Assembly: GCA_001778495.1 (NCBI GenBank)
Contig: MFHE01000002.1
Location: 17,995-81,994 of the forward strand
DNA length: 64,000 nt
DNA from: Candidatus Giovannonibacteria bacterium RIFCSPHIGHO2_01_FULL_45_24
Lineage (GTDB): Bacteria > Patescibacteriota > Minisyncoccia > UBA11713 > 2-01-FULL-45-33
Direction of reading: 5' to 3'
Shown here: positions 1,263 to 56,128 of the stretch, piece by piece
Layout of the letters: each line of letters starts with the position of its first letter
Position numbering within the stretch: the stretch's first letter is position 1
Notes under the pieces: model-generated
What the model saw: only the letters and a program-made list of their open reading frames with translations
The model's database searches: none
What the model was told of the DNA's origin: nothing
Program-made: the position numbers and the translations under genes

Positions 1263-1916
1263 ATGTCAAAGAGAAATATTGTAGTAGTCGCGGTTCTCGC
1301 GGCAGCCGCTCTAGGAACGGCAGGCTTTTTTATTTGGAGGAATATTAACTCGCCCGGGGGAATGCCTCGCTCCTCAACATCCGATGTTGAATCTCCAAAA
1401 ACATCGGATGTTTTCCCGCGAGACGTCAAAGAGAGCGATGAGCTTGAAACGTTAGCCAGGCAAGCTTTGGCCAGAAAAATCCCCTCCGGGAACGAGGCGG
1501 CGACAAAAGAATTAAAAGATATGTCTTTGCAGCTGGAGCGCGAGCCGAATTATCTTCAAGGATGGCTGCAGGTTGGGATTTTGCGCAAGTTTTTGGGCGA
1601 TTACGACGGCGCGTCTTTGGCTTGGCAGTACGCGTCTTTGATCCGCCCCCAAGAATATATCGCTTTTTCTAATCTCGGCGATCTTTACCATTATTACCTG
1701 AAGGATTTCCCCAAAGCCGAGAAATACCTGCGAAGGGCCGTGGATGTAAAACCGGATTATGTCGCCGGATACAAAAATTTATTTGACCTTTACACGCTCT
1801 CTTATAAGGAAAAGAAAAATTTAGCTGAATCTGTTTTGCTTGAAGGCATCAAAAAAAATCCAGGAGATAATTATCTGCAGGGGATTCTTACTTCTTATCG
1901 CGCGGGGGATCTTTAG
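1263..1916 (+). CDS. membrane-anchored TPR-repeat protein
   Basis: N-terminal TM helix (VVVAVLAAAALGTAGFFIW). C-terminal TPR-like repeats (GDYDGASLAWQYASLIRP, LGDLYHYYLKDFPKAEKYLRRAVDVKPDY). Confidence 0.7.
   Translation: MSKRNIVVVAVLAAAALGTAGFFIWRNINSPGGMPRSSTSDVESPKTSDVFPRDVKESDELETLARQALARKIPSGNEAATKELKDMSLQLEREPNYLQGWLQVGILRKFLGDYDGASLAWQYASLIRPQEYIAFSNLGDLYHYYLKDFPKAEKYLRRAVDVKPDYVAGYKNLFDLYTLSYKEKKNLAESVLLEGIKKNPGDNYLQGILTSYRAGDL
1371..1418 (+). repeat. 48-bp double-hairpin element, copy A, in frame in the TPR gene
   Basis: TCAACAT-CCG-ATGTTGA (1374-1390) plus AAAACAT-CGG-ATGTTTT (1398-1414). 46/48 nt identical to 53360-53407. Confidence 0.9.
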
Positions 1917-1918
1917 CT

Positions 1919-2782
1919 ATGCGCATTATTGATGCGAGAAAAATAAGCTACGCGTTTTCCGGGATATTGGTGCTGGCGAGCTTTTTGGCGGTGGCGGTTT
2001 GGGGGCTGAAGTTGGGGATAGATTTCACCGGCGGAACTTTGATGGAGGTGGAATACAAAACATCAAGGCCGGCTGTAAATTTGCCGGAAATTACAATACA
2101 GCCCGTTGGCGAGAGAGGGCTGATTTTGAGAATGCCGGCAATCGGCGAGCAGGAGCACCAGGCCCTGCTTGACGAGCTTAGAAGCTACGGCGATTTGGAC
2201 GAAAAACAATTTACTTCCATCGGGCCGACAATCGGGCAGGAATTAAAAAGAAATTCGCTTTACGCGATTATTCTGGTGATGCTGATGATCGCTCTCTACA
2301 TCGCCTGGGCTTTCCGCGAGGTTTCAAAGCCAATATCTTCCTGGAAATACGGCTTGGCCGCGCTCGTTGCTTTGGTGCACGATGTCTCCATCCCTATCGG
2401 CCTTTTTGCGGTTTTAGGGCGTTTTTACGGCGTCGCCGCGGATACGCTTTTTGTTACGGCGCTTTTAACTATTTTGGGTTTTTCCGTGCATGACACAATC
2501 GTGGTCTTTGACCGCATTAGGGAAAACTTAAAAAAGTCCGGAGCTAGGGAAGAATTTGAAAATATTGTTGAGCAAAGTTTGCGCCAAACAATCGGCCGCT
2601 CCATAAACACCTCGCTTACCGTGATGCTGGTGATGCTGGCGCTTTATTTTCTGGGAGGTGCCTCAACCAAACTTTTCGCGCTAGCCATACTCGTGGGCGT
2701 CTTTTTCGGAACGTATTCGTCAATTTTCATCGCCAGTTTCCTCTTGGTGAGCTGGCACAAGTGGGGTTTGAAACGCGCTTGA
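1919..2782 (+). CDS. secF: protein-export membrane protein SecF
   Basis: IDFTGGTLMEVEY motif, six TM segments, FSVHDTIVVFDRIRE motif typical of SecF. Confidence 0.85.
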   Translation: MRIIDARKISYAFSGILVLASFLAVAVWGLKLGIDFTGGTLMEVEYKTSRPAVNLPEITIQPVGERGLILRMPAIGEQEHQALLDELRSYGDLDEKQFTSIGPTIGQELKRNSLYAIILVMLMIALYIAWAFREVSKPISSWKYGLAALVALVHDVSIPIGLFAVLGRFYGVAADTLFVTALLTILGFSVHDTIVVFDRIRENLKKSGAREEFENIVEQSLRQTIGRSINTSLTVMLVMLALYFLGGASTKLFALAILVGVFFGTYSSIFIASFLLVSWHKWGLKRA

Positions 2783-2839
2783 ATAAAACCCCAAAATCAG
2801 CTAAGATTTAGGAGATTTATAAGAGCAAAAACTTAGTTT

Positions 2840-3460
2840 TTGAAAAATGACAAAACGATAATGAGATTCATTAATTTTTTAAAACAGTATCATAATCAAA
2901 TAATTTCTATAGCTGCGATAGGCGGTTTATTTTTTGGGGGATATCAGACATGGCAGTTTAGAGAAGATAAATACTTTCAGTACCGACCCTATGTGAATTT
3001 GGCAACAATCAATTTTTTATCATCGGATGGAATAGAAATAGAAATTAAAAATGATGGCTTGAGTACGGCTCAAGATATAATTTTGGGTTTATTTAGATTG
3101 GATAAAAGTGGGGAAAAGGAAGAAAGATTGACATATAGATTAACAAGTGGGGCGAATATGGAAGTGGTGGATGACGGAAAAGAATATGAGGTGACGATTA
3201 TAGGGTTAGTTGGAGATTTAAACCCAAATGCCATCAAAAAAATCAAAATTCAATTTTTAAGAGAGGAAGAAACAAGGACGATTAGAAACGAAAATTTTAT
3301 ATTAGTTATCAAAATTATATACGACGACTATTTACATAGAGGAAACGAGCATAATTATTATCTCCAATTTAATAGAGAGAATGAATCCTTTTATATTAGT
3401 GATGAATTTGAAGAAAGGGCTGGAAACGAAAGAACGCTGTTTATACATAAATTTTTATGA
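2840..3460 (+). CDS. hypothetical membrane-anchored protein (AT-rich orphan)
   Basis: Long ORF, visibly AT-richer than its flanks, with one N-terminal TM segment. No recognisable motif. Start uncertain (TTG 2840 or ATG 2861). Confidence 0.5.
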   Translation: MKNDKTIMRFINFLKQYHNQIISIAAIGGLFFGGYQTWQFREDKYFQYRPYVNLATINFLSSDGIEIEIKNDGLSTAQDIILGLFRLDKSGEKEERLTYRLTSGANMEVVDDGKEYEVTIIGLVGDLNPNAIKKIKIQFLREEETRTIRNENFILVIKIIYDDYLHRGNEHNYYLQFNRENESFYISDEFEERAGNERTLFIHKFL

Positions 3461-3684
3461 GTGTGTATTGAATAATCTAAAGACTACAACTTGAAAGTGC
3501 GCGTTTTAATCAATAAAAATTAAGTAAAATGCTAAACTAACTCATGACGCGGATTTTGATGATATTTATTTTTGGGTTCGCGGCGGGTAGAAAACAACTA
3601 AAAGAATTTTAGTTACTTTTGCTATCGCAAAAGTAATGCAAATCAATGATGGGGACACCTTTTCAGGAGAGGGTGAAGGCGGGC

Positions 3685-3761
3685 TTGACCCCGTTAGAGG
3701 TCGCGCCCGCGCTGCGCGCCCAAAGGGCCTCAAGGGCGGGCTACCTCTAACGGGGTTGACT
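3685..3761. repeat. long imperfect hairpin module TTGACCCCG...CGGGGTTGAC
   Basis: CCCCGTTAGAGGT (3689-3701) pairs with ACCTCTAACGGGG (3743-3755). Inner GCCCGC/GCGGGC adds pairing. Same terminal motifs as the GIY-YIG cassette at 30248-30571. Confidence 0.8.
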
Positions 3762-3784
3762 TATTTTTGGGGGTTTGCTAGAAT
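3756..3784 (+). promoter_or_regulatory. sigma70-type promoter of rpoBC
   Basis: TTGACT (3756-3761), 17-nt spacer, TAGAAT (3779-3784). The leader is about 165 nt and has hairpins at 3803-3817 and 3891-3919. Confidence 0.6.
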
Positions 3785-3954
3785 AGGCATTGTCTTATCC
3801 ACAGGCAAAATTTGCCTTATTTTATAAGAAACGCTAAAATAGCTCCTGTCGCTTTGAATACAAAAATCCGCACCTAAAGAGAATCTAAAAAGTCCTCGTT
3901 TTTAAGTTAAAAGAGGGCTGTTTTGCGTTTATTCGGGCTAATAAACAGAGCAAA

Positions 3955-25031: not shown

Positions 25032-26315
25032 CTATGTCAACAAGCGCTTTCTGTGTAATTTTCTATAATGCGAAATCGCGAAGCGGTGGGCTTCGGAGTC
25101 CAGCATTAAAATAAAATTTTTGAGCGGTTCGGGGAGGCGCGGAAGGGGGACGGGAGACGTTTTACCATTTATAAAAATATGGTCACCAATATGTTTTTTG
25201 TTTTTGGTGAGAGCGATTATTTTACTTGGCGGTTTAACCGCCAAGGCCGCGCTAAGCTGTGCCCTGCCGCCGTCAACAATAATCACTTGCGGGTAAGGCC
25301 ATTCTTTATGTCTTAGTCGTCTGAAAATAATTTCGCGGAGCATCGCCGGGTCGTTTGAGGTTTTAATACTTCTGATTTTAAACAGCCGATAGCAATTTTT
25401 TTGAATTTTGCCGTCAGCGAAAACGGCCATAGAGCCGTAGGCGAATTGGCCATGAATATTGGCGATGTCGTAGGACTCTATTCTATTTATTGCGGGAATA
25501 TCCAAAATTGATTCCAAGGCCCTGCTGGCCTTGGCGAATTCGGTCGGAAGGTCCTGTTTAATTACTCCCCTGTGTTCAAAGATTTTTTCCAGCGCGCGGA
25601 TTTGGTCGCGGATTTTGCCGGCCTCTTCGTATTTTCTGGCGTCGGAGAGTTCGCGCATTTCTTTTTTGAGCGCGCGGGCAAGAGTTTTATTGTTGCCGGA
25701 GAGTATTTGCTTGATTGCGCGGATGTTTTTTTGGTATTTCCCCAGCGCAGAAAGATCCTGCTCTAAAAGCAGGGCTTTCTGCGCTACGCAACAATAGCCC
25801 AAACATCTCCCAATGCGCGCATTAAGGCACGGCCGCCTGTGAGGTTTTTTGCATGTGCAGTAGGGAAAAGCGCGGCGCAAGGTCTTGAGCGCCGAGCGTA
25901 AAACCCCGCCTTCAGTGAAGGGGCCGATGTAGTCGGCTTCGCGGTTTTTCTGATGCGTGATAAATATCTTTGAAAAATTTTCTTTAGAGAACCCGACATA
26001 AAAATACTGCTTATCGTCGCGCATCAGCACGTTGTATTTCGGCAGGTGTTTTTTAATGAGCCCCGCTTCGCGGATTAAGGCCTCGGTTTCGGAGTTTAAA
26101 ACCTCCCAATCCAATATTTTGGCTTTTTTTAGCAAGGCAATCAACTTGGCGGTTAAACCGCCAAGTGGCGGTTTAACCGCTTTTCCGAAATATGACCTGA
26201 TCCGCGCGCGCAGATTCGCCGCCTTTCCTATATATAGAATCTCCCCACTTTTGTTTCGGAAAAAATAAATCCCGGGCGCATTTGGCGCTTTTTTAAAGTC
26301 CTTTTTGGTGAGCAT
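25032..26315 (-). CDS. uvrC: excinuclease ABC subunit C (short form; I could not find a C-terminal (HhH)2 domain)
   Basis: GIY-YIG N-terminus (GIYFFRNKSGEILYIGKAANLRARIRSYF), a Cys cluster, a UVR domain and an RNase H-like domain. 427 aa. Confidence 0.9.
   Translation of the reverse strand: MLTKKDFKKAPNAPGIYFFRNKSGEILYIGKAANLRARIRSYFGKAVKPPLGGLTAKLIALLKKAKILDWEVLNSETEALIREAGLIKKHLPKYNVLMRDDKQYFYVGFSKENFSKIFITHQKNREADYIGPFTEGGVLRSALKTLRRAFPYCTCKKPHRRPCLNARIGRCLGYCCVAQKALLLEQDLSALGKYQKNIRAIKQILSGNNKTLARALKKEMRELSDARKYEEAGKIRDQIRALEKIFEHRGVIKQDLPTEFAKASRALESILDIPAINRIESYDIANIHGQFAYGSMAVFADGKIQKNCYRLFKIRSIKTSNDPAMLREIIFRRLRHKEWPYPQVIIVDGGRAQLSAALAVKPPSKIIALTKNKKHIGDHIFINGKTSPVPLPRLPEPLKNFILMLDSEAHRFAISHYRKLHRKRLLT
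25225..25245. repeat. REP-2-like palindrome, in frame in uvrC
   Basis: CTTGGCGGT-TTA-ACCGCCAAG. Confidence 0.8.
26145..26180. repeat. REP-2-like palindrome plus overlapping inverted half-copy, in frame in uvrC
   Basis: CTTGGCGGT-TAA-ACCGCCAAG followed by TGGCGGT-TTA-ACCGC. Confidence 0.8.
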
Positions 26316-35944: not shown

Positions 35945-37603
35945 ATGCCCTCTCAAATTGAAGAAATAAAAAGCCGCGTAAATGTCGTGGATTTGGTGGG
36001 CTCGTATGTCCGGCTTGCCAAAGCCGGCGCCAATTTCAGGGCGCTTTGCCCGTTCCACAGCGAGCGGACGCCGTCTTTTAACGTTTCTCCGGCCAGGCAG
36101 ATCTGGCATTGCTTCGGCTGCGGCAAGGGCGGGGACATTTTTGAATTTATCCAGCAGATTGAAGGGGTGGAGTTCGCGGACGCTCTGCGGACTTTGGCCG
36201 ACCGCGCCGGAGTGGAGCTCAAGCACGAAGACCCGCGATTTCGCACGGAGCGCGCGCGGCAGTTCGCGCTTCTGGAAGAAGCCGCGAAATTTTTTGAATC
36301 TAACTTAGCAATCGGATTGCTAAGTCCACTTAGCAATCCGATTGCTAAGTATCTTCATGCGCGTGGCCTGACTGATGACACCATCCGCGAATTCCGCTTG
36401 GGTTACGCGCAGGATGAATGGCGCTCTCTCTCCGCTCATTTAAAAAACAAGGATTTTTCCGCGGCGGAGATAGAAAAATCGGGGCTTGTTGTCAAAAATC
36501 AGCGCGATTTTTACGACCGCTTTCGCGGGCGGATAATGTTCCCGATTTTTGATTACAACGGCAGGGTAGCAGCTTTCGGCGGGAGAATTTTTCCGGAAAA
36601 AGATAACGAGTCAAAATATGTAAATTCGCCGGAAACTATTCTTTACCAAAAAAGCAAAACTTTGTATGCGCTCAACAAATCAAAAACGGAAATTATGCGC
36701 CAAAAAGAGTGCGTTGTGGTTGAGGGCTATATGGATGCGATTATGTCCTGGCAGGGCGGGGTAAAAAATGTCGCGGCATCTTCCGGAACGGCTTTCACTG
36801 AAGACCAGCTAAAGACAATCAAACGGCTTGCCGATAGGATGATTTTCTCTTTTGACGCCGACTCGGCCGGCGAGTCGGCGTCAAAACGCGGCATTGCTTT
36901 GGCCTTGGAGCGCGGATTTGAGGTGAGAGTGGCCGGAGGGTTGGGCGTTAAGGACCCGGCCGAAGCAGTCGCGAAAAATCCGGAGATTTGGCAAAAAGCC
37001 GTTTCCGCTTCGCGCCATATTGTTGAATTTTATCTGGATTCGGCCGTGAAAAAATTCCACCCTGCCTCCCCGGAAGCCAAACGTGAAATTCAAAAAACGG
37101 TTTTGCCGGTGGTTGCGTCCTTGGGCGAGCTTGAGCGCGCGCATTGGGCGAGGGAATTGAGCAATATTTTAAATATAAAAGAAGAAGCCGTCTGGGCGGC
37201 TTTGAAAAAAGCGAATACCGCCCTTTCACAGGAAGGAGAAAATGTTTTCGGAGATGAGCAAGGATCCGCGCGCAATAATAACAGAAAATCATTGCTTGAG
37301 GGCAGGATTTTAGCCATCGCCGCGGAATATCCGGCGCTTTCCCAAAAACTTGACCCGGCCTTTCAAAATCTGCTCGCCCAGAGCAACAAAACAGCCATCT
37401 TCGCGGAAATTTTACTCAACAATCTCGCTGACGCCGAAGTGGAATTCATAAAATGCCAGCGGGAGCTTAAAAAAGAGTATTTAAAAGAGCGTCTGGTTGC
37501 GCTTTCCGGAGAGATAAGCGGCGCGGAGCGCAAAGGCGCGGGAAATCTAAAAACGCTCCTGGGGGAATTTCATAAAATTTCCAAAGAATTAAATCAAATA
37601 TGA
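35945..37603 (+). CDS. dnaG: DNA primase
   Basis: Zn ribbon [30 protein letters not shown] and [14 protein letters not shown]...DADSAG. Confidence 0.95.
36304..36349. repeat. REPIN-like doublet, in frame in dnaG
   Basis: CTTAGCAAT-CGG-ATTGCTAAG, tcca, CTTAGCAAT-CCG-ATTGCTAAG. Confidence 0.95.
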
Positions 37604-42025: not shown

Positions 42026-42728
42026 AAACGGGAGAATAGTTTTATCGCCGTCCGCCCTCAATCTTTTTTTGGAGTGCGCGAAATGCTTTTGGCTGGAAAA
42101 AAATCGCGGGATCCACCGGCCCTCGGGCGCCTTTCCGTCTTTGCCGGGGGGAATGGACGCTGTGCTCAAAAAATATTTTGACAAGTTTCGCGCGCAAGGC
42201 ACACTCCCGCCGGAGATTGAGGGAAAAGTAGAAGGTAAGCTTTTAGACGACCCGAGATTTTTGCGCGAGTGGCGGCTCAATATGAAAGGAATCAGATGGC
42301 GCGACGAAAAATTGGACGCGGAGCTGATGGGCGCTTTAGATGACTGCTTGGTTTCTAATAATTCTTACATCCCCGTTGATTATAAAACTAGAGGCTGGGC
42401 GGCGAAAGATGATTCACATTCTTATTATGTGAACCAATTAAATTGCTACACATTTTTGCTGCAAAAAAACGGATACAAAACTAAAAATTTCGCTTACTTG
42501 CTTTTTTATTCGCCTGAAGAGGTTTTGGACTTGGACGCCGGACGTCCAAGCGGACGTCCGGCGTCCTTAGTCGCATTCAACGTTGAGCCGCGCAAGGTTG
42601 AAGTGGAACCCGAAGCCGCCTACAAAGTTTTCAAATCTGCCGTCCAGCTTTTGCGCGGCCCCAAGCCCGCTTCGCACAGCGACTGCAAGTTTTGCAGCTG
42701 GGGAAACAATTTCTTGACTTTTGAATAA
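42012..42728 (+). CDS. PD-(D/E)XK (Cas4/RecB-like) nuclease family protein
   Basis: N-terminal SPSALNLFLECAKCFW, core IPVDYKT, C-terminal CKFCSW cysteines. The track start at 41862 is rejected because it overlaps the MFS gene. Confidence 0.65.
   Translation: MVKDKNGRIVLSPSALNLFLECAKCFWLEKNRGIHRPSGAFPSLPGGMDAVLKKYFDKFRAQGTLPPEIEGKVEGKLLDDPRFLREWRLNMKGIRWRDEKLDAELMGALDDCLVSNNSYIPVDYKTRGWAAKDDSHSYYVNQLNCYTFLLQKNGYKTKNFAYLLFYSPEEVLDLDAGRPSGRPASLVAFNVEPRKVEVEPEAAYKVFKSAVQLLRGPKPASHSDCKFCSWGNNFLTFE
42530..42566. repeat. REP-2-like double hairpin, in frame in the nuclease gene
   Basis: GGACGCCGGACGTCC-aagc-GGACGTCCGGCGTCC (15-bp arms). The first half reads CTTGGACG-ccgga-CGTCCAAG. Confidence 0.9.
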
Positions 42729-43132: not shown

Positions 43133-43165
43133 CCAGCCCCGACGCATGTCGGGGCTGGGTTTTTT
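43133..43165 (+). terminator. Rho-independent terminator
   Basis: CCAGCCCCGAC-gcat-GTCGGGGCTGG followed by GTTTTTT. Confidence 0.85.
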
Positions 43166-44507: not shown

Positions 44508-45648
44508 ACTGACATTCGGCCGCCACAACGCGACTTTCGCGGTGCTTGGGGTGGCGCTTGTGGCGACGGCATCGTGGTCTTTCGTGAAAACTTACGGGGC
44601 GGGAGACGGGGGCGCGTTTCAGACGACTCCGGCTGTCATTTCCGAACCCGAAAAGCCAAAACACATAAAAACCCCTGAACCGGTGAAGGCGATTTATATG
44701 ACCAGCTGGGTTGCCGGCACGAAAGATTGGCGTAGAGAACTGGTTGAGTTCGTTAAAAAATCCGAAATCAATAGCATTGTCATTGACGTAAAAGATTACA
44801 CTGGCAGAGTTTCTTTTAACACAGGGAATCAGAAAGTAAAAGAATTCGGTTCGGAGGAAATGCGCGTGGGAGACATGAAAGATTTTATTGAAACGCTACA
44901 CGACGCCGGCATCTACGCCATTGCCCGCATTGCCGTGTTTCAGGACCCGTTTTACGCAAAAAAACATCCGGAGATCGCCGTGCAGAAAAAAAATGGAGCG
45001 GTATGGAAAGACAAAAAGGGGCTTTCATATCTAGACCCGGGCGCGCGCGAATTTTGGGACTATATAATAGAAGTCGCCAAAGCGTCGGAGGCAGCCGGGT
45101 TTGACGAGCTGAATTTTGACTATATCCGCTATCCATCGGACGGCAATATGTCCGACATAATGTTTCCGGTATCAGGCAAAAGAAATAAAGTTGAAGTCAT
45201 GTCAGAATTTTTTGCCTATTTAAGTAATGCGCTAAGCGATCTGCCAGTCCCAATCTCTGCGGATGTTTTCGGAATGGTTGCCACCAATCCCGACGATTTG
45301 AACATCGGGCAGGTTTTGGAAAGCATCGCCCCGCATTTTGATTATGTTTCTCCAATGGTTTATCCGTCGCACTACCCGCCGGGATTTCAAAATTATAAAA
45401 ATCCCGCGGCGCATCCTTACGAGGTAGTGCGTTTTTCAATGAACAAGGCGGTGGAACGACTTTCAGCGCCGACTTCAACTCCTTCCAAACTCCGCCCTTG
45501 GATTCAGGATTTTGATTTGGGAGCAAATTACGATGCCTCGAAAGTCCGTGCGCAGATTCAGGCGGTTTACGACTCCGGCCTTACGTCTTGGATGAGCTGG
45601 GATGCCGGGAATAAATACACAAGGGATGCTTACACCTCTGATCCTTGA
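44482..45648 (+). CDS. putative glycoside-hydrolase-like TIM-barrel protein (DUF4015-like)
   Basis: N-terminal anchor, then VKAIYMTSWVAG...INSIVIDVKDYTG...DELNFDYIRYP pattern. Confidence 0.55.
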   Translation: MKRQKYFHKLTFGRHNATFAVLGVALVATASWSFVKTYGAGDGGAFQTTPAVISEPEKPKHIKTPEPVKAIYMTSWVAGTKDWRRELVEFVKKSEINSIVIDVKDYTGRVSFNTGNQKVKEFGSEEMRVGDMKDFIETLHDAGIYAIARIAVFQDPFYAKKHPEIAVQKKNGAVWKDKKGLSYLDPGAREFWDYIIEVAKASEAAGFDELNFDYIRYPSDGNMSDIMFPVSGKRNKVEVMSEFFAYLSNALSDLPVPISADVFGMVATNPDDLNIGQVLESIAPHFDYVSPMVYPSHYPPGFQNYKNPAAHPYEVVRFSMNKAVERLSAPTSTPSKLRPWIQDFDLGANYDASKVRAQIQAVYDSGLTSWMSWDAGNKYTRDAYTSDP

Positions 45649-46372
45649 CCCAAATCCGATTTAGGGCAATCATATAATAATCATAGCATTGATATATGCG
45701 AAAAAACCCTTTTATCACTGGCAGTTTTTATCATGTTTACGCGCACACAATAAGTGATTTAGCGCTTTTTCGTAACGAGTGGGACTATAAAAGATTTTTA
45801 TGCACGTTTTTCGCTGCTAATGGAGATGGCGCTGTTCTTCGTTTGGATCGCCAGAATGACCTAAATCCGATTTGGGGCATACGGGATGGGACAGTAGATA
45901 TCGGAAAGCCGCTTGTAGATATAGTTTGTTTTTGTCTCATGAACACCCATTTCCACTTGCTTTTGGGAGAGCGTGGAGATGGAAATATTTCTAAATTTAT
46001 GCAAAAGCTTATGATCAGCTATGCCAAATATCTAAATCTAAAGTACGAACGCCGAGGGCACGTGTTTGAAAGCAGATTTCATTCCAAGCTTTTGGATGAT
46101 AATGAATATTTTTTGCGGGCTTCGTGCTATATTCACTTGAATCCAAAAGATGCACGCGGATGGAAAAATATTGAGTATAAATATCCTTGGTCAAGCTACC
46201 AAGACTACCTCGGCGATTCTCGCTGGGGCAGACTTTTGAAAGACGAGACTATACTTTCACAATTTAAAACCAAACTGGCGTATAGGGAATTTGTGAGAGA
46301 AGCGCGCCCGGAATTATCCGATTATGCAGAGCATGTTGTTTTTCTAAACTGACCCAAATCGGATTTGGGGCA
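45646..46372 (+). mobile_element. RAYT-1 unit: Y1/HUH transposase gene bracketed by 23-nt REP-1 hairpin copies
   Basis: TGACCCAAATC(C/G)GATTT(A/G)GGGCA at 45646-45668 and 46350-46372. A third copy lies at 45857-45879 inside the ORF. Confidence 0.75.
45696..46352 (+). CDS. REP-associated tyrosine transposase-like protein (IS200/Y1_Tnp family)
   Basis: FYHVY..., HUH motif in CLMNTHFHLLL, C-terminal Tyr motif ASCYIHLNP. Confidence 0.8.
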   Translation: MRKNPFITGSFYHVYAHTISDLALFRNEWDYKRFLCTFFAANGDGAVLRLDRQNDLNPIWGIRDGTVDIGKPLVDIVCFCLMNTHFHLLLGERGDGNISKFMQKLMISYAKYLNLKYERRGHVFESRFHSKLLDDNEYFLRASCYIHLNPKDARGWKNIEYKYPWSSYQDYLGDSRWGRLLKDETILSQFKTKLAYREFVREARPELSDYAEHVVFLN

Positions 46373-46705: not shown

Positions 46706-46706
46706 T

Positions 46707-47471: not shown

Positions 47472-47481
47472 ACCAGCGGCG

Positions 47482-47508: not shown

Positions 47509-47563
47509 CATTGTGAATATCAATGGATTGCCTCATTTTTCAAAGTCTTTTAAAATTAAGTTA

Positions 47564-49915: not shown

Positions 49916-49925
49916 TAAAATTGGG

Positions 49926-50261
49926 ATGGAAGAGCAATTTTCAAAAACAATAAGAACGACCACCCTGATTTTAATCGCGGCTTTGGCCATTGCGGCAATT
50001 TATTATTATTGGACTCAATTGTCCGGAATTGAACCCGCAAAAGAAGAAAGGCCGTTTTATGTGCCCGCGCCAACTAACGCCCCGCCATTGCCGGAAACGA
50101 AAGAGTTTATCCCGGAGCCCACTAAAGCCCCGCCTCTTCCAGCAAGCAAGGCGCCGGAGCCGACTAATGCACCCACTCTTGAAGAATTAGGAACACCACC
50201 ATCTTCCACACCGCTTCCGGAGGGCTCCGCTCCTCCTCCCACCGGCGCACCTGCTTTATAA
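49926..50261 (+). CDS. small single-pass membrane protein with Pro-rich repeated tail (module 2, gene a)
   Basis: TM segment [17 protein letters not shown], then (A/E)PT(N/K)APPLP repeats. The stop overlaps the next start (TAATG). Confidence 0.55.
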
Positions 50262-51937
50262 TGAATCTTATGAAGAACCAAACTAACAATTTATTAAAAG
50301 ATGTGGCTAAAGTGGCGGTTTTCGGAGTTGCGTTTTTGGTGTTGCAGGCGCTTGCGTTTACAGAGCCCTCGCAATCTCCTCCCTGGGGCAATACTCCTGC
50401 TCCGTTAAATGTTTCCGGCTCAACGCAAGCTAAAAGCGGAGAGCTTCAGATTCCAATTCTCCGCGACTACAACAATCCCGGCTATTACGTTGACCCCGAT
50501 GCCAATTCGTGGCTCTACCGGCTTTATTCTTTTGAATTAAGATCGGAGGATAAAATCTGTTTTAAAGGGGACTGCAGGACATCATGGCCCTCCAGCGGTA
50601 CCGACAGCCAAACCCTTTCCATCAGTGGGCAAACTCTTTCTATTTCCGGCGGAAATAGCGTCGCTTTGCCGGCGGGGGGAGATATTACCGCGGTTAATGC
50701 GGGAGCTGGTCTTTCTGGGGGAGGAGCTTCCGGCGATGTCGCGCTTTTCGCAGACACCGGCTATCTGCAAAGAAGAATAAGTGACACGTGCGGCGCCGGT
50801 TCGTCCATTCGGGCAATAAATTCTGACGGCTCTGTTGTTTGCGAAGCGGATGACGCCGGTACTGGAGGTATTGGAGCAGAATCCGACACTTTACAAAGCG
50901 TAACCGACCGCGGCAATTCAACCTCTCAAAATTTGACCTCTCCGATAGTCTATGACTACAACAATGCTGGCTACTACGTTGACCCCGCAGCCAACTCGTG
51001 GCTTTACAGATTATATTCTTACGAACTTTGTCTTCGCAACGATTGCGTCACTTCTTGGCCTCCCGGTCCGCCGGGACCGCAAGGTCCGGCAGGCCCGACT
51101 GGACCCACTGGCGCAACCGGAGCAACGGGAGCTGCCGGACCACAGGGCCTCAAAGGGGATACTGGAGCAGCTGGTTCAAAAGGCGACACAGGGGCGACTG
51201 GCACGACGGGCCTCCAAGGTCCGCAAGGTCCTGCAGGACCAGCTGGCGACATTACGGGTTCAAATCCCAACTGGTTGCGCGCTCTTTGGCTGGAGGCGAC
51301 CAATTATCTTAAGGCTCCGATTCTTTACGATCGCGACAATGAGGGATATTATGTTGATCCCGCTTCCAACTCAATATTTTTTAGGTTATATTCCTATGAT
51401 TTAAAGTCGCTAGACCGGATTTGCCTTCGCGGCGATTGCCGCACCTCGTGGCCATCCGGCGGCGGCTCTGACAGCCAGACGCTTTCCATAAGCGGTCACA
51501 CTTTATCTATTTTCGGCGGCAACAGCGTCTCATTACCCGATAATGACAGCCAGACTTTATCTCTAAGCGGCCAGACGCTTTCCATCTCCGGCGGCAACAG
51601 CGTTAGTTTGCCATCCGGCGGCGGCTCTGACAGTCAGACGCTTTCTTTTAATCCAGATACCTATAATCTTAATATTTCTGGCGGAAACAGCGTGACATTG
51701 CCCGGGCAAAAAGTTTGCATCGGTTATCATACCGAAGGAGATAATTGGCACGACATTTTGCAAGTGCCGACTGGCTGGACGATATCAACATGCCGCAACG
51801 GGTTAAAAACATTCAGTAGTTCCATAAAGAAGTTTATGTTGGGGTGCATTTTTACAAATTCCTTCTCAAAATCGCCGGGCGACTTTGTGGGCATTAACAA
51901 TAATCCAAGTTTGCCTTCACCAAATTGCGGCTGGTAA
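50261..51937 (+). CDS. secreted collagen-like fibre protein (module 2, gene b)
   Basis: Signal ...LQALA|FTEPS and [20 protein letters not shown]. 20 G-X-Y triplets (about 51065-51247). Repeated [14 protein letters not shown] and [19 protein letters not shown] units. Confidence 0.8.
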
Positions 51938-51956
51938 ATTATTAATCCTTAGGAAG

Positions 51957-51977
51957 TTAGGAAGTCCGACTTCCTAA
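51957..51977. repeat. intergenic REP-like hairpin
   Basis: TTAGGAAGT-CCG-ACTTCCTAA, preceded by a partial duplication of the left arm. Confidence 0.8.
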
Positions 51978-52020
51978 TGATTTTGCTTGCTTGATAGATT
52001 GAATTTGATAGAATTAAAAT

Positions 52021-53265
52021 ATGGTTAAAAATTTCAGAGTTGGCGCGGTTTTGGCGACTTTGGTTTTCGGGGCGGCTTTTTATTTTCTTCCGACTTTTCA
52101 CTCTCCAGAAGTCCAAGCGGGCTCCGAGCATAATCTTTCCGGGTGGGCGTGGTCGGAAAATATCGGCTGGATAAGTTTTAACTCAACCAATCAGGGTGGT
52201 GGGGCGAACTACGGCGTGACGGTTGACAGTGGCGGCAATCTTTCCGGCTACGCCTGGTCGGAAAACATCGGCTGGATTGATTTTAATGAGAATACCGGAT
52301 GCCCATCTTCTCCCTGCCGGCCGAAACTGAACCGTTCCAGCGGGCAAGTTTCCGGATGGGTTAAGGCCTTGGCGGCGGGCGGCAGCGGTTGGGACGGCTG
52401 GATTCGCCTTCGTGGATCTAATTACGGAGTTGGTGTTAACGGCTGTGACTGGGATGGGTATGCTTGGGGGTCTGATGTTGTGGGATGGATTCATTTTAAG
52501 GGATCAAATTACGGCGTTTCGGGAACTGGATCCGGCTGCGGCGTTCAGCCCGATTTGCTCGTTTCAAGCGGCCCGCTGCTTAATTTCGGCGTTTTGGTCG
52601 GAGGGACGACGGTCAATTTCAAGGGCACCGTGCGCAATCAGGGCGACGCAGAAGCCGTAGGCGCTTTTTCTAATCGCTTTCAGGTTGACATTGATAATAA
52701 CGGCTCGGTTGATTTAACGCTTACTCCAAATCCAACATTGAGCGGCCTCGCCGCCGGAAGATTTTCTGAAGTGGTTTCCGGAAACTGGAGCAATATCCCC
52801 GTCGGCACGCACCGCGTTGTTCTTTGCGCCGACCAGCCCGGCCCGACTATTGCCGAATCCAACGAAAATAACAACTGCTCGGAAAGCTTATTCACCGTCT
52901 CCGTGCCGGAGTTTTACCTATTAAGCTCAAACGAGCTTGATATTGATGTCACCGGCGTGGGAGATTCTTCAAGCGGCACTACCAAAATAACCGTGATTCC
53001 GGTCGGAGCTTTTACCGATGACGTCGCATTGTCTGTACAGTCCGTTTCGCCGTCTTTGCCTGCTGGGACAATTTATAATTTCGTGCCGCAAACCCTGAAG
53101 AAAAATCAGTATTCTTCCGGTTCAAATTTTAAAGTGACGGTTCCCGGAGACACCGCGGAGGACGAGTATATTATTACCATTGTAGGCCAAAGCCCTGGAC
53201 TCAACCGGACAATCAATGTTACACTTCATGTTAATTTAAAGATTCCGGAATTTAAAGAAATTTAA
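52021..53265 (+). CDS. secreted surface protein, paralogue of 47564-49915 (module 2, gene c)
   Basis: Same N-terminal GWAWSENIGWISFN repeat domain and same C-terminal domain, ending PEFKEI versus PDFREI. Confidence 0.75.
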   Translation: MVKNFRVGAVLATLVFGAAFYFLPTFHSPEVQAGSEHNLSGWAWSENIGWISFNSTNQGGGANYGVTVDSGGNLSGYAWSENIGWIDFNENTGCPSSPCRPKLNRSSGQVSGWVKALAAGGSGWDGWIRLRGSNYGVGVNGCDWDGYAWGSDVVGWIHFKGSNYGVSGTGSGCGVQPDLLVSSGPLLNFGVLVGGTTVNFKGTVRNQGDAEAVGAFSNRFQVDIDNNGSVDLTLTPNPTLSGLAAGRFSEVVSGNWSNIPVGTHRVVLCADQPGPTIAESNENNNCSESLFTVSVPEFYLLSSNELDIDVTGVGDSSSGTTKITVIPVGAFTDDVALSVQSVSPSLPAGTIYNFVPQTLKKNQYSSGSNFKVTVPGDTAEDEYIITIVGQSPGLNRTINVTLHVNLKIPEFKEI

Positions 53266-53266
53266 C

Positions 53267-53950
53267 ATGGATCAAAAATTTTTAATTCCGTCTTCTATTA
53301 TTTTGGCTGGTGTAGTAATTGCCTTGGCGGTTTTGTATAGCAAAATCCCGTCCGCGCCCTCCTCAACATCCGATGTTAAATCTGCAAAAACATCGGATGT
53401 TTTCCCGGGCGCGGAAGCTCTACGTATCCGCCGAGACGATTTTGTTTTGGGAAGTCCCGCCGCGAAAGTCGCCATTATTGAATATGGAGATTTTCAGTGC
53501 CCGTTTTGCGGAAGATTTTTTCAAACTACCGAAAAGGAGATTATAGAAAAGTACGTGAAGACCGGCAAAGCCGCGTTTTTGTGGCGCGACTTCGCGTTTT
53601 TGGGAGAAGAGTCTTTCCGCGCCGCCGAGGCGGCGCGTTGCGCCGGAGAGCAGGGGAAGTTTTGGGAATATCACGACTATCTTTTTAATGGTCAGCGGGG
53701 GGAAAATGAGGGCGCGTTTTCCGACCAAAATTTGAAACGTTTCGCGAAAGAGCTGAAACTGGACGAATCTAAATTTAATTCCTGTTTTGATTCCGGAAAA
53801 TACAGAAAAGCGGTTGAGGAAACGTCAAATACGGGGAGAGCGGTTGGGGTGAACGGCACCCCGGCCACTTTCGTAAACGGGCAGTTAATTTCCGGAGCGC
53901 AGCCGTTTGCCGTGTTTCAGAAAATTATAGATGAAGAGCTCAAAAAATAA
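53267..53950 (+). CDS. DsbA-family thiol:disulfide oxidoreductase (membrane-anchored)
   Basis: Thioredoxin-fold CPFC active site and an N-terminal TM segment. Confidence 0.85.
   Translation: MDQKFLIPSSIILAGVVIALAVLYSKIPSAPSSTSDVKSAKTSDVFPGAEALRIRRDDFVLGSPAAKVAIIEYGDFQCPFCGRFFQTTEKEIIEKYVKTGKAAFLWRDFAFLGEESFRAAEAARCAGEQGKFWEYHDYLFNGQRGENEGAFSDQNLKRFAKELKLDESKFNSCFDSGKYRKAVEETSNTGRAVGVNGTPATFVNGQLISGAQPFAVFQKIIDEELKK
53360..53407 (+). repeat. 48-bp double-hairpin element, copy B, in frame in the DsbA-like gene
   Basis: 46/48 identical to 1371-1418. Encodes SSTSDVKSAKTSDVFP. Confidence 0.9.
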
Positions 53951-54446
53951 TTTTTTTGTCTTGGCAGCGATTATTTTGATTCTGGCCGCGGCCGGATATT
54001 TTGTTTTTAATTATTTTTCCAAGCTTGCCTCTGTGCCGGAAATGGGGGAGAGTTATCCGATAGAGGGCGCGGCGCATGTCGCCGATGGCGTAAAAGTTGA
54101 CTACCGCACAAACCCGCCGTCTTCCGGAGCGCACTACCGGAGCTCGGCGCGCTGGGGTGTTTATGACAAAGCGCTTCCGGACGAAACTTTAGTGCATAAT
54201 CTTGAGCACGGCGGAGTCTGGATTTCTTACAAGCCCTCAATTCCCCGGGACGAAATAAAAAAACTTGAGGATTCGGCGCGAAGCTACAAAAGCAAAGTCA
54301 TTTTGACGCCCAGAGAAAAAAACGACTCGCCAATAGCCATTGTAAGCTGGGGCAGAATTTATAAAATGGATTCTTTTAGTGAAGAAATGATTAAAAATTT
54401 TGTATTAAAATATAAAAATACCGGCCCGGAATTGGTGCCGGACTAA
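53931..54446 (+). CDS. DUF3105-like membrane-anchored protein
   Basis: PPSSGAHY...HNLEHGGVWISY pattern. Confidence 0.65.
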   Translation: MKSSKNNFFVLAAIILILAAAGYFVFNYFSKLASVPEMGESYPIEGAAHVADGVKVDYRTNPPSSGAHYRSSARWGVYDKALPDETLVHNLEHGGVWISYKPSIPRDEIKKLEDSARSYKSKVILTPREKNDSPIAIVSWGRIYKMDSFSEEMIKNFVLKYKNTGPELVPD

Positions 54447-54447
54447 C

Positions 54448-55416
54448 ATGCTTTATGATGTTATAATTATCGGCGGGGGCCCTGCCGGAGCGGCGGCGGC
54501 AGTGTATGCTGCCAGAAAAAAACTAAAAACGCTTTTAATTACCGATTCTTTCGGCGGGCAATCGCTTGTTTCCAGCGATATCCAAAACTGGATAGGCGAG
54601 CCGCATATTTCCGGATTTGACCTTGCGCAAAAACTTGAAGCGCACGTGCGCTCCTTTCCGGACGCTGTTGAGATAAAGACATCGGAGAGGGCGACGGCAA
54701 TTCGCAGCATCAAGTGCAGTGAAGAGAGGATTTGTGATTTTGAGGTCAAAACCGACCAAAATAATGTTTATGAAGCTAAAACGCTGATTTTAACAATCGG
54801 CGCAAGAAGAAAAAAACTCGGCGTGCCAGGAGAAGAGAAATTTGAAGGCAAGGGCGTGGCTTATTGCTCAACCTGCGACGCGCCGCTTTTTTCCGGGAAG
54901 CGAGTCGCGGTTGTGGGCGGCGGCAATGCCGGATTGGAAGCAGTAGTTGACCTTTTCCCTTATGCTTCGGAAATTTATTTAATCCATCGCGGAGACGCTC
55001 TAAAAGGGGACCCGGCGGAGCAAGAAAAAATCAAGAAAAATCCTAAACTTAAAGAGATAATCTTGAATGCGGAGACATTGGAAATTTTGGGGGACAGGTT
55101 TGTTGCCGGATTGAAATATAAAAATTCAAAGACCGGAGAAGAAAAAGCGTTGAGCGTTGAGGGGGTTTTTGTGGAAATTGGCTCCCAGCCCAATTCTGAA
55201 ATAGTTAAAGATTTGGTTCTTTTAGACCAATGGGGGCAGATAAAAATTGACCCGCGGCACGGTTCAACCTCGCACCCGGGAATTTTCGCGGCCGGAGACG
55301 TCACCGACGACCCGTACAAACAAAACAATATTTCGGTAGGCGACGCCGTAAAAGCGGCTTTGGCGGCATATAATTATTTACTCAAGCGCGAAAAACAACC
55401 CCCCGCGGCCGGTTAG
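54448..55416 (+). CDS. trxB: thioredoxin-disulfide reductase
   Basis: DVIIIGGGPAGAAAA, redox CSTC, second GGGNAGLE fold, and AAGDVTD. Confidence 0.88.
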   Translation: MLYDVIIIGGGPAGAAAAVYAARKKLKTLLITDSFGGQSLVSSDIQNWIGEPHISGFDLAQKLEAHVRSFPDAVEIKTSERATAIRSIKCSEERICDFEVKTDQNNVYEAKTLILTIGARRKKLGVPGEEKFEGKGVAYCSTCDAPLFSGKRVAVVGGGNAGLEAVVDLFPYASEIYLIHRGDALKGDPAEQEKIKKNPKLKEIILNAETLEILGDRFVAGLKYKNSKTGEEKALSVEGVFVEIGSQPNSEIVKDLVLLDQWGQIKIDPRHGSTSHPGIFAAGDVTDDPYKQNNISVGDAVKAALAAYNYLLKREKQPPAAG

Positions 55417-55420
55417 TTCC

Positions 55421-56128
55421 CACTTGGCTGTCCGACAGCCAAGTGTTATATTTTATTTATGAGAAAAACTCGTTTTGGTAACGGAGAATTTTATCATATT
55501 TATAATCGCGGTACCGATAAGCGTCGGGTATTTTTAGACCAAGAAGATTTTAAGCGTTTTTTGCAGAGCATGAACGAATTTAACAGCCAAATACCTATCG
55601 GCAGTTTATTTGAGAACTCTTTTAGGGGCGAAACTAAACTTGGCAGTCGGACTGTTAAGTTGGTTGATATCGTTTGCTATTGTCTTAATCCTAACCACTA
55701 TCATTTAATGCTTCGTCAGCGCATTGAAAATGGAGTTAGTGAGTTTATGAAACGATTGAGTGGTGGTTATACTCAATATTTCAATATTAAATATAAAAGA
55801 AGCGGCGTGCTTTTTCAAGGTAAATTTAAGGCGACGCACATAGATTCTAATGAATATCTTTTACATGCCAGCGCATATGTTAATTTGAATAACCGCGTTC
55901 ATCATATTAATGACAGATCATCACGATCAAGTTGGGGAGAATGTCTCGATGACAATAGCGGTATGTGCGCTAAAGATATTATATTGAAGCAATTTAAGAA
56001 GCCCGTCGAGTATAAAGAATTTGCTGAAAGTTCGCTAAGAGATATTTTAGAGCGGAAACAACTGCATAAAGAACTGGAAAAAATATTACTAGAAAATTAG
56101 CCACTTAGCTGTCGGACAGCTAAGTGGC
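55421..56128 (+). mobile_element. RAYT-2 unit: Y1/HUH transposase gene bracketed by REP-2 hairpins
   Basis: CACTTGGCTGT-CCG-ACAGCCAAGTG (55421-55445) and CCACTTAGCTGT-CGG-ACAGCTAAGTGG (56101-56127). Internal copy at 55638-55660. Confidence 0.8.
55459..56100 (+). CDS. REP-associated tyrosine transposase-like protein (IS200/Y1_Tnp family)
   Basis: FYHIYNRG..., HUH motif in CLNPNHYHLML, Tyr motif ASAYVNLN. TGtTATATT ends 7 nt before the ATG. Confidence 0.8.
   Translation: MRKTRFGNGEFYHIYNRGTDKRRVFLDQEDFKRFLQSMNEFNSQIPIGSLFENSFRGETKLGSRTVKLVDIVCYCLNPNHYHLMLRQRIENGVSEFMKRLSGGYTQYFNIKYKRSGVLFQGKFKATHIDSNEYLLHASAYVNLNNRVHHINDRSSRSSWGECLDDNSGMCAKDIILKQFKKPVEYKEFAESSLRDILERKQLHKELEKILLEN

Follow-up and report, generated by a model that had tools for sequence, protein, structure and literature searches.

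The repeated hairpins scattered through this part of a Candidatus Giovannonibacteria metagenome-assembled genome are genuine, and they are probably REP-type elements of two RAYT-like Y1 HUH transposase genes, whose products would copy the units. The host is a tiny groundwater bacterium (Patescibacteria/CPR). REPs within genes, and within RAYT genes themselves, have already been published for other phyla; what is new here is the host group and the sequence form of a known kind of element. All palindromes listed in a first-pass annotation of the window (the whole 64,000-nt stretch analyzed) were located, and independent assemblies from NCBI, ENA, JGI and Logan carry identical or near-identical sequence, so the palindromes are not an assembly artefact.

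Each of the two Y1 HUH genes in the window has its own palindrome upstream, downstream, and in frame within the ORF:

45646-45668: REP-1 upstream copy, TGACCCAAATCCGATTTAGGGCA; the TGA in the unit is the stop codon of the preceding DUF4015 gene
45696-46352, + strand: RAYT-1, Y1 HUH transposase-like gene, 218 aa, with HFH and YIHLNP motifs
45857-45879: REP-1 internal copy within the RAYT-1 ORF, encoding DLNPIWG and preceding the HUH motif
46350-46372: REP-1 downstream copy, TGACCCAAATCGGATTTGGGGCA; the TGA in the unit is the RAYT-1 stop codon
55422-55444: REP-2 upstream copy, ACTTGGCTGTCCGACAGCCAAGT, between the trxB stop and the RAYT-2 start
55459-56100, + strand: RAYT-2, Y1 HUH transposase-like gene, 213 aa, with HYH and YVNLNN motifs
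55638-55660: REP-2 internal copy, ACTTGGCAGTCGGACTGTTAAGT, within the RAYT-2 ORF, encoding KLGSRTVKL
56103-56125: REP-2 downstream copy, ACTTAGCTGTCGGACAGCTAAGT, immediately 3' of the RAYT-2 stop; the palindrome reaches 56100-56128

The three REP-1 copies have 0-1 mismatch relative to TGACCCAAATCSGATTTGGGGCA, and no dispersed REP-1 copy occurs in the available sequence. The internal REP-2 copy has three mismatches, two of them G.T, and falls in a low-confidence loop preceding the HUH strand in the AlphaFold model of RAYT-2 (pLDDT 81). Both proteins match Pfam PF01797 (25.6 bits for RAYT-1 and 32.3 bits for RAYT-2). The best PDB fold match of the RAYT-2 model is 4ER8, the E. coli TnpAREP bound to a REP hairpin (E 2.7e-6), followed by the TnpA proteins of IS608 and ISDra2; a profile search gave no PDB sequence match. 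Matches to curated RAYT models are weak (NCBIfam 24 and 38 bits, the latter RAYT-1 to REP_Tyr_transpos, under a cut-off of 80), and some homologues carry the JGI name ‘REP element-mobilizing transposase RayT’. The HUH and Y motifs are invariant in the alignments; RAYT-2 has more than 3000 homologues.

The same layout is repeated in 79 GTDB and 80 metagenome loci, roughly 160 related Patescibacteria loci, with REPs at recurrent positions: upstream (-20 to -50), inside the gene (~ +175-195, and again at ~ +450-480 or +620-710) and downstream (+5 to +30). The relative orientation of the flanking copies is not fixed. With two PF01797 genes accompanied by cognate copies and the arrangement recurring in related loci, the first-pass proposal that REP-like hairpins are linked to RAYT-type genes is supported.

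Each unit is palindromic over 23 nt, and its fold is a 10-11 bp stem closed by a 3-nt loop. In the perfect palindrome the T-A and C-G of the centre also pair, leaving one unpaired C/G at the midpoint; the single-stranded unit forms a 10-11 bp stem capped by a CSG triloop. The foot of the stem is lineage-specific and present on both arms: ACTTRG...CYAAGT in the RAYT-2 lineage, TGACCYAAA...TTTRGGTCA in the RAYT-1 lineage, and ...AACA...TGTT... in a third, whose gene lies outside the window. Inward of the foot is a 3-bp stem, free in sequence but complementary, and then a 5-nt centre, Y-NNN-R. Folding energies are -7 to -11.5 kcal/mol for units and -12.6 to -24 kcal/mol for doublets, with z-scores of -4.5 to -12.

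The window holds 10 perfect TC(C/G)GA-centred palindromes with arms of at least 7, among 24 odd palindromes with such arms, whereas 200 dinucleotide shuffles gave a mean of 0.195 and a maximum of 3; the TCCGA/TCGGA enrichment expected in the first-pass annotation is therefore present in the window. These 10 come from 163 TCSGA sites, and each of the 31 other symmetric 5-mer classes yields 0-3. In all, 13 of 16 units in the window have the TCSGA centre, the others being the uvrC and PD-(D/E)XK units. No further palindrome copy was found in 17 kb of additional flank.

Away from the RAYT genes there are seven sites, six of which are in frame within genes (dnaG, uvrC twice, and genes for a PD-(D/E)XK nuclease, DsbA and a TPR protein):

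1372-1416: doublet CCTCAACATCCGATGTTGAAT...CAAAAACATCGGATGTTTTCC, in frame in a membrane-anchored TPR protein gene (ORF 1263-1916; TPR by Pfam), encoding SSTSDVESPKTSDVF in the linker following the TM helix
25224-25246: one ACTTGG-foot unit ACTTGGCGGTTTAACCGCCAAGG with TTTAA at its centre, in frame at aa 357-364 of uvrC (minus strand)
26144-26180: overlapping doublet ACTT-GGCGGTTAAACCGCC-AAGT-GGCGGTTTAACCGC, in frame in uvrC, aa 46-58, AVKPPLGGLTAKL
36303-36350: inverted doublet of 23+2+23 nt, ACTTAGCAATCGGATTGCTAAGT cc ACTTAGCAATCCGATTGCTAAGT, in frame in the dnaG linker, aa 120-136
42529-42566: overlapping doublet ACTT-GGACGCCGGACGTCC-AAGC-GGACGTCCGGCGTCC, centre CCGGA, in frame in the PD-(D/E)XK nuclease gene, aa 223-235
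51956-51978: single unit GTTAGGAAGTCCGACTTCCTAAT (TTAGGAAGTCCGACTTCCTAA), intergenic, right after the stop of a collagen-repeat protein gene
53361-53405: another copy of the doublet at 1372-1416, in frame at aa 33-46 (SSTSDVKSAKTSDVF) of a DsbA-like gene, also in the linker following a TM helix

The doublets at 1372-1416 and 53361-53405 lie in two unrelated genes and have 2 differences across ~ 49 nt; the window contains no cognate RAYT for these class C (AACA...TGTT) doublets or for the 51956 unit. Both uvrC copies have the centre TTWAA, and an AVKPPSGGLTA-coding doublet that occurs in uvrC here occupies the DnaG linker in other genomes. That linker is polymorphic for insertions: many orthologues have no unit there, one (P0278) has a single unit, and in others doublets occur, representing at least two REP types. 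Similarly, the PD-(D/E)XK orthologue in CP066687 has another REP doublet at the matching codon position, and the linker of the DsbA orthologue there contains a different palindrome. Dispersed sites number ~ 7 in 81 kb here, and around RAYT genes elsewhere the ACTTRG type amounts to ~ 1 copy per 56 kb; copy number is far below that of classical REP families. The suggested REPIN architecture stands in part: inverted doublets exist and each folds into a single long hairpin, but with lengths of 42-48 nt, spacers of 0-7 nt and mainly coding locations the resemblance is only approximate.

Anchoring on the foot makes the test for inner-stem covariation non-circular. A search of 1.24 Mb gives 203 ACTTRG-N11-CYAAGT sites, with no spacing other than 11, and 184 of them have all three inner pairs Watson-Crick, using 21 different triplets. 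By tool count the inner stem is 95% paired, with a covariation score of 0.68 versus 0.19 for shuffled and ≤ 0.17 for slid alignments. The covariation of the arms noted earlier is thus real, but alone it does not prove selection, because inter-site copying or hairpin-templated correction yields the same pattern. The ACTT(A/G)G...C(T/C)AAGT outer arms do tie the dnaG, uvrC and PD-(D/E)XK copies to REP-2, as had been proposed. REPs that flank RAYT-2-lineage genes in 79 other genomes conserve this foot as their signature. The copies evolve in concert: those in and around one RAYT gene are alike and those of different genomes differ, with inner triplets identical in 80% of within-locus pairs versus 8.6% of between-locus pairs, and internal and flanking copies concordant in 120 of 147 pairs.

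The idea of an invariant, recognized centre was not supported by the wider comparison. No part of the unit varies more across the family than the 5-nt centre, for which TCSGA is simply the commonest among more than 30 types. Within a locus, centres are reverse-complemented as often as not (97 versus 85 pairs), and centre type tracks RAYT protein similarity weakly. Relatives of RAYT-1 keep the TGACCYAAA arms with centres CTWAG, CAAGG or CCGGG, and co-resident REP classes in other genomes share a centre in 1 of 19 pairs. What is conserved is the foot of the stem, specific to each lineage, together with the constant 23-nt geometry. The TCSGA centre is probably not a loop-specific recognition code; its sharing here most likely reflects common descent or recent homogenization of active variants, together with its being the commonest centre of the family.

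By analogy with what biochemistry has established for IS200/IS605 TnpA and E. coli TnpAREP, we infer that the palindrome would extrude as a hairpin from single-stranded DNA and that the RAYT would bind the stem foot and hairpin geometry, then cleave and rejoin the DNA beside the hairpin. Units or inverted doublets might in this way be copied to new sites or overwrite older copies. Such copying would make the copies at one RAYT gene identical and those of different genomes different, would place 42-48 nt doublets in frame in tolerant gene linkers, and would leave different REP types in one linker across genomes.

An unlikely alternative is that the palindromes formed and were kept perfect in place at permissive sites, through hairpin-templated replication errors in which template switching corrects quasi-palindromes, with RAYT genes that merely adjoin such hairpins, or inserted beside them, and do not move them. 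A 37-nt palindrome encoding the conserved DnaG Toprim motif (36850-36886) fits this, as it differs from the closest relative's quasi-palindrome by 4 changes, all palindrome-extending and 3 synonymous. So do the different palindromes in orthologous linkers and the lack of strand asymmetry between G.T and A.C mismatches. An in-place origin does not explain the near-identical 49-nt doublet in unrelated genes, the doublet shared between uvrC here and dnaG elsewhere, the strict 23-nt geometry and lineage-specific foot at hundreds of sites, or the 80% inner-stem identity among copies of one RAYT locus. Hairpin-templated correction may nevertheless contribute to arm complementarity.

Slightly less probable still is that each RAYT gene and its two flanking hairpins form an autonomous, ordinary selfish IS200/IS605-like insertion sequence rather than a domesticated REP/RAYT system, the hairpins being left and right ends and the dispersed units MITE-like remnants. 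The protein superfamily is the same, subterminal hairpins lie on either side, and genomes carry several RAYT paralogues. CP066687 lacks RAYT-1 at the syntenic site, where it retains a solo REP-1-type hairpin, and the nearest GTDB homologue of RAYT-2 (L011) is not syntenic, so there may be some gene-level mobility. Against an autonomous element, RAYT-1 and RAYT-2 are only 34% identical and no near-identical copies were seen, no tnpB partner is present, the family is absent from IMG/VR viral contigs, and one perfect palindrome, randomly oriented, forms both ends, without distinct left and right versions. Moreover, trxB and gap bracket a RAYT in CP066687 and in at least 7 loci with TrxB proteins that are only 35-59% identical, which argues for long residence.

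It is very improbable that the hairpins act mainly as RNA (terminators, mRNA stabilizers or translational pause sites) or as protein-level modules selected for their peptide: copies at 46350, 51956 and 56103 do immediately follow stop codons, and classical REPs frequently act in 3' UTRs (Di Nocera 2013, PMC3733652), but no T-run follows the hairpins, the sole terminator-like hairpin nearby (43133-43158) is unrelated, most dispersed copies are within ORFs, sense-strand G.T mismatches are not favoured over A.C (52 versus 63), loop orientation is random, and one unit read in different frames and strands gives different peptides.

Among the nearest known counterparts are the REP/BIME and TnpAREP system of E. 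coli and the REPIN-RAYT systems of Pseudomonas (Nunvar 2010, PMC2817692; Bertels and Rainey 2011, PMC3116915; Bertels 2017, PMC5581495; 4ER8). As there, copies of a short palindrome lie on both sides of the gene for a single-domain Y1 HUH protein, and others are found at further genomic sites, often in inverted pairs; RAYT and REP sequences co-vary between genomes; divergent paralogues coexist in one genome; and 4ER8 is the best fold match. In contrast to the classical systems, the elements lack the canonical 5' GTAG/GTGG guide tetranucleotide and carry their conserved tag within the stem, once in each arm (ACTT...AAGT). No bulge interrupts the perfect 23-nt palindromes, copies are few, doublets are much tighter and mostly coding, flanking copies are randomly oriented rather than inverted, and the proteins score far below the curated RAYT model. 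IS200/IS605 elements (IS608, ISDra2) share the HUH Y1 fold, and their TnpA recognizes subterminal hairpins on single-stranded DNA, but the differing, imperfect hairpins at their left and right ends, their guide and cleavage tetranucleotides, frequent tnpB and multiple identical copies were not seen here.

TnpAREP subclass 2.4 (Quentin et al. 2018, PMC6006769) features ‘double foot’ REPs as well as REPs that lie in frame within tnpAREP. The Patescibacteria elements likewise place cognate REPs in peripheral loops of the RAYT ORF without disrupting the frame, and are tagged at both ends; they differ in host and in foot (ACTT...AAGT or TGAC...GTCA), and their in-ORF sites fall before HUH (~ aa 60) and after Y (~ aa 150 or the C-terminus). 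Intragenic REPs (Di Nocera et al. 2013, PMC3733652) are in-frame palindromic repeats in functional genes, mainly dimers, and a striking proportion of them occupy genes for replication and repair. The dispersed copies resemble these and the Rickettsia palindromic elements (RPE) in being in-frame palindromic repeats, mostly dimers, within functional genes, and dnaG, uvrC and the PD-(D/E)XK nuclease gene are the replication and repair genes occupied here. Whereas those elements are GTAG- or CGTC-tagged REPs, or longer RPEs without a known transposase, the elements described here have a different tag and a CPR host, and a single linker holds different REP types across orthologues.

The window sequence forms part of contig MFIF01000006.1 (GCA_001780675.1, a Candidatus Giovannonibacteria MAG of the Patescibacteria/CPR from the Rifle aquifer), has a G+C content of 48%, and was also found in independent ENA, JGI and Logan assemblies. 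The first-pass annotation described dispersed hairpins with covarying arms and an invariant, recognised T-C(C/G)G-A centre. All of its palindromes occur in the window. The centre is there too, but it is not a five-base loop: the T pairs with the A and the C with the G, and the TCSGA units are perfect palindromes about one C or G. As single strands, the units are predicted by folding to form a 10-11 bp stem with a CSG triloop (-6.8 to -11.5 kcal/mol).

TCSGA is the centre of 10 of the 24 odd palindromes in the window with arms of at least 7. Counted by pentamer, 10 of the 163 TCSGA sites are palindromic at this arm length, and the other 31 symmetric pentamer classes contribute 0-3 each. The 10 observed compare with a mean of 0.195 and a maximum of 3 in 200 dinucleotide-preserving shuffles of the window; with the palindromes in place and TCSGA enriched over shuffles, the dispersed-hairpin observation is confirmed. 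With mismatches tolerated, the remaining two copies each of REP-1 and REP-2 (the palindromes cognate to RAYT-1 and RAYT-2) and the second class C doublet (the class at 1372-1416 in a TPR gene and 53361-53405 in a DsbA-like gene) are also recovered, which brings the total to 16 units in 11 places. TCSGA is the centre of 13; the unit in the PD-(D/E)XK gene has CCGGA, a single substitution away from TCGGA, and those in uvrC have TTWAA. An unfiltered search of the window with a covariance model of 107 units recovered the known copies and nothing else above noise, and no further TCSGA palindromes occur in the fetched flanks (8.1 kb left, 9.1 kb right). An Rfam scan of the window returned three tRNAs only, the hairpins matching no known RNA family. 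No polymorphism was seen at REPs among ten assemblies of the same population. Between assemblies of that population, there is an 18-nt indel in a gene for a collagen-triple-helix-repeat protein (50261-51937).

Two genes in the window encode Y1 HUH transposase-like proteins.

RAYT open reading frames in the window
45696-46352: RAYT-1, Y1_Tnp domain (PF01797), Y motif YIHLNP
55459-56100: RAYT-2, Y1_Tnp domain (PF01797), lineage Y motif YVNLN(N/D), a variant of NP

Their PF01797 scores are 25.6 and 32.3 bits (Pfam cut-off 23), and the HFH/HYH motif and a single Tyr are invariant in the homologue alignments. Neither reaches the 80 bits of the curated NCBIfam equivalog NF047646, REP_Tyr_transpos (38.2 bits for RAYT-1, 24.1 for RAYT-2), a profile search against PDB sequences gave no match, and the two proteins are 34% identical to each other. 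The AlphaFold model of RAYT-2 (pLDDT 81, pTM 0.79) has as its top Foldseek match in the PDB 4ER8_A (E 2.7e-6, TM 0.66 on target), the E. coli TnpAREP bound to a REP hairpin; the next fold matches are the TnpA proteins of IS608 and ISDra2. Judged by sequence, the window proteins are a distant branch of RAYT/TnpAREP.

Each RAYT gene has a cognate palindrome ~30-40 nt before its start, another directly after its stop, and a third in frame within the ORF. The in-ORF copies lie ahead of the HUH motif and encode DLNPIWG in RAYT-1 and KLGSRTVKL in RAYT-2, where the segment is a low-confidence loop in the AlphaFold model. The TGA that starts REP-1 at 45646-45648 terminates the DUF4015 gene, and the one at 46350-46352 terminates RAYT-1. 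Some RAYT-1 relatives translate the downstream REP as their C-terminus, with tails such as DPNQVWDI that echo the internal DLNLVWDI motif. The window holds two RAYT genes only, and no third one for the class C doublets.

Homologues of both RAYTs number in the thousands, nearly all in Giovannonibacteria and other Parcubacteria, and some are labelled RayT by JGI. No RAYT relatives were found on IMG/VR viral contigs. The comparison covered 79 GTDB loci and 80 metagenome loci. In most, palindromes occur upstream, downstream and inside the gene at ~+175-195, often also at ~+450-480 or near the C-terminus. Among the 79 GTDB loci, a cognate copy is upstream in 63 and downstream in 54, and most of the 80 metagenome loci repeat the layout. 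The combination of Y1_Tnp genes with cognate palindromes, repeated across loci, supports the REP/RAYT interpretation. By homology only, we infer that the mechanism, including binding and cleavage of single-stranded REPs, would be that of REP/RAYT systems.

For the RAYT-2 lineage, a position-frequency table gives the consensus ACTTGG-NNR-Y(NNN)R-YNN-CCAAGT, in which the foot is conserved at 75-99%, a pyrimidine stands at position -2 and a purine at +2 in every case, and the remainder is variable. The RAYT-1 lineage keeps the arms TGACCYAAA...TTTRGGTCA, and a third RAYT lineage elsewhere has ...TGTYNAACA...TGTTNRACA... arms, like the class C doublets of the window. trxB and/or gap adjoin RAYT in at least 7 further loci, where TrxB has diverged much more; L011, the nearest GTDB homologue, has a different genomic position.

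So, do the arms covary about a fixed centre? To avoid circularity, covariation was anchored on the foot alone (ACTTRG-N11-CYAAGT). This pattern has 203 matches in 1.24 Mb, vs 0-1 at the other spacings from N7 to N15, and at 184 of the 203 sites all three inner pairs are Watson-Crick, with 21 different triplets. The 107-unit alignment has a covariation score of 0.68 (shuffles 0.19, slid partners ≤ 0.17), 230 double-sided changes and a paired share of 95%, although these units were picked for palindromy, which makes the percentage circular and the foot-anchored test the unbiased one.

The idea of an invariant recognised loop is not supported. Across loci, the centre is the least conserved part. 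TCSGA is the commonest centre (~16-25%), and others include CTWAG, TTSAA, CCSGG, TGAAA, CGAAG, CAAGG and more. Relatives of RAYT-1 with unchanged arms have CTWAG, CAAGG or CCGGG, and one with a differing centre is in a genome whose RAYT-2 REP is the REP-2 of the window. Copy pairs within a locus have the same centre in 97 cases and the reverse complement in 85. The relation of centre or inner stem to the RAYT protein is a weak signal (mean identity 54.7% vs 52.6%), and the centre matches that of the nearest neighbour by RAYT protein in 12 of 62 cases. A genome-level constraint on the centre was rejected: of 19 pairs of co-resident REP classes, 1 has a common centre, vs 8% between loci, and because sharing is this rare, a common TCSGA is no general rule. 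Given a centre that varies across loci, among the copies of a locus and between co-resident classes, the uniformity in the window is therefore a property of this genome and not a rule of the family. Chance and recent homogenisation are both adequate to account for it, since there are about three independent arm lineages and a 19% TCSGA background (P about 0.04).

In the window, ACTTRG-foot units are dispersed at dnaG, uvrC (twice) and the PD-(D/E)XK gene, and 6 of the 7 dispersed sites are in frame within ORFs; there is no dispersed REP-1 copy in 81 kb, which is part of one contig. Elsewhere in the family, dispersed copies occur at ~1 per 56 kb. In other family genomes, 5 of 21 dispersed ACTTRG units are in ORFs, far below the 86% of bases in ORFs of at least 150 aa. 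The family is therefore mostly extragenic, as are classical REPs, and the genome of the window, whose dispersed copies are not, is unusual. Selection at the RNA level or on the sense strand is countered by mismatch counts, in which G.T is no commoner than A.C; as the units are also read in different frames, selection acts on neither an RNA hairpin nor a particular peptide. A terminator reading fails on the absence of T-runs and the placement of most copies within ORFs. Unrelated to the REP family, a GC-rich hairpin at 43133-43158 (CCAGCCCCGAC-GCAT-GTCGGGGCTGG) is followed by a T-run and resembles an ordinary intrinsic terminator.

The inner triplet is the same in 80% of within-locus copy pairs vs 8.6% between loci; pairing an internal with a flanking copy gives agreement in 120 of 147 cases. 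Beyond the RAYT loci, the post-TM linkers of two unrelated proteins (TPR and DsbA) share a ~49-nt doublet, apart from two differences, and the dnaG doublet of the window lies between the zinc-finger and polymerase domains of DnaG. This linker is short in many DnaG orthologues. It contains one unit, LSNPIAKYL, in the orthologue P0278, the window type AIGLPS..NPIA in several orthologues, and in others AVKPPSGGLTAL, the peptide of the window’s uvrC doublet. In Giovannonibacteria RIFCSPLOWO2_02_FULL_45_28, the same linker holds an unrelated 51-nt palindrome (L014 18292-18340) with 25-bp arms and without the ACTTGG foot that encodes VANQQISEKFVDSRQE.

CP066687, the closest complete genome (DnaG 84% identical), shows synteny with the window. 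Its PD-(D/E)XK gene has a different REP doublet and its DsbA linker a different palindrome, each at the same codon position as in the window (ACTTGGCGGCTAAGCCGCCAAGTGGCGGTTTCACCGCC and TCCCCTCCTTGGTAAGGAGGGGA; ~430-475 and 7890-7915 of L174, the CP066687.1 locus). A RAYT-2 homologue lies between trxB and gap and has the REP ACTTGGCAA-CCSGG. RAYT-1 is absent, and a solo REP-1-type hairpin, TTGACCGAAACTAAGTTTCGGACAA, follows the DUF4015 gene (L174 3533-3557).

A possible, if doubtful, reading is that REP sites in these reduced genomes are long-lived slots, overwritten by whichever variant the resident RAYTs currently propagate. The slots would include two fixed RAYT loops and the linkers of DnaG, UvrC, DsbA and the PD-(D/E)XK nuclease. 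It is conceivable, though on balance improbable, that overwriting proceeds by RAYT-driven gene conversion at hairpins rather than by classical transposition. If true, slot overwriting would explain why in-ORF and flanking copies evolve in concert, why one orthologous codon position carries different REP types, and how several arm classes here came to be homogenised to a single TCSGA centre. It would also be a steady source of new linker peptides in essential proteins.

Other sequence features were noted. In the Toprim region of dnaG (36850-36886), a 37-nt palindrome with 16-bp perfect arms, TTTTGACGCCGACTCG-GCCGG-CGAGTCGGCGTCAAAA, encodes a conserved Toprim motif. CP066687 has only a quasi-palindrome at this site. 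The window differs from it at four nucleotides (three synonymous, one Ala to Ser), each of which lengthens the window palindrome, a pattern suggestive of template-switch ‘quasi-palindrome correction’ or of a selected hairpin. Across the whole window, CTCAG/CTGAG occurs 3 times vs ~51 expected (observed/expected 0.06) and AGCCT/AGGCT 22 times vs 81, a scarcity that looks like restriction-site avoidance. Near the L25 and SLT genes, 8657 nt beyond the window end in the right flank (~20556 of L172), a palindrome with 15-bp arms, ACCCCGTTAGAGG-CATTG-CCTCTAACGGGGT, represents another hairpin class with no RAYT nearby. Its position is kept in CP066687 with small changes (L174 19835).

The origin and movement of REPs and their matching to RAYTs are still debated, even for E. 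coli and Pseudomonas. The Patescibacteria family is a very regular system, with a fixed 23-nt length and a foot, inner stem and loop that evolve at clearly different rates, and each of the thousands of RAYT homologues comes with three or four reference REP copies in or around the gene. The specificity code is therefore testable by sequence comparison and simple oligonucleotide assays. In very small genomes with little intergenic space, REP elements can settle within essential replication and repair genes, which bears on annotation (odd DnaG and UvrC insertions) and on the variability of protein linkers in CPR bacteria.

Earlier work has described REP/RAYT systems, REPINs and RAYT classes in detail (PMC2817692, PMC3116915, PMC5581495). 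In-frame REPs in tnpAREP genes and ‘double foot’ REPs were reported for TnpAREP subclass 2.4 in Cyanobacteria and Bacteroidetes (Quentin et al. 2018, PMC6006769). Di Nocera et al. (2013, PMC3733652) reported REPs within genes, for the most part as dimers and frequently in genes of replication and repair, and pointed to the Rickettsia RPEs. The literature that could be searched yielded no account of REP/RAYT elements in Patescibacteria, which is no proof of absence. Classical REPs have a GTAG/CGTC tag, whereas the present elements have ACTT...AAGT or TGAC...GTCA within the stem; the position-frequency table has no conserved GT[AG]G or CGTC at the 5' foot, with ACTTGG/CCAAGT conserved and the flanks weakly so. 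As in a REPtron, both window genes are flanked by their cognate palindrome; the relative orientation is random. The doublets at 1372, 26144, 36303, 42529 and 53361 each fold as one long hairpin, and the resemblance to a REPIN, in which two inverted REPs form a longer hairpin that replicates as a unit, is approximate; spacers are 0-7 nt, singlets also occur, and one doublet is present twice. IS200/IS605 elements occur as multiple copies that are nearly identical, with hairpins that differ between the left and right ends, a target tetranucleotide and often tnpB, a combination not seen here. Unlike them, the window has two RAYT genes only, paralogues of 34% identity that each have the same palindrome at both ends, and the RAYT position is syntenic across distant relatives. 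Strict 23-nt geometry, low copy number, the positions of the in-ORF copies and the host group further distinguish the present elements from known REPs.
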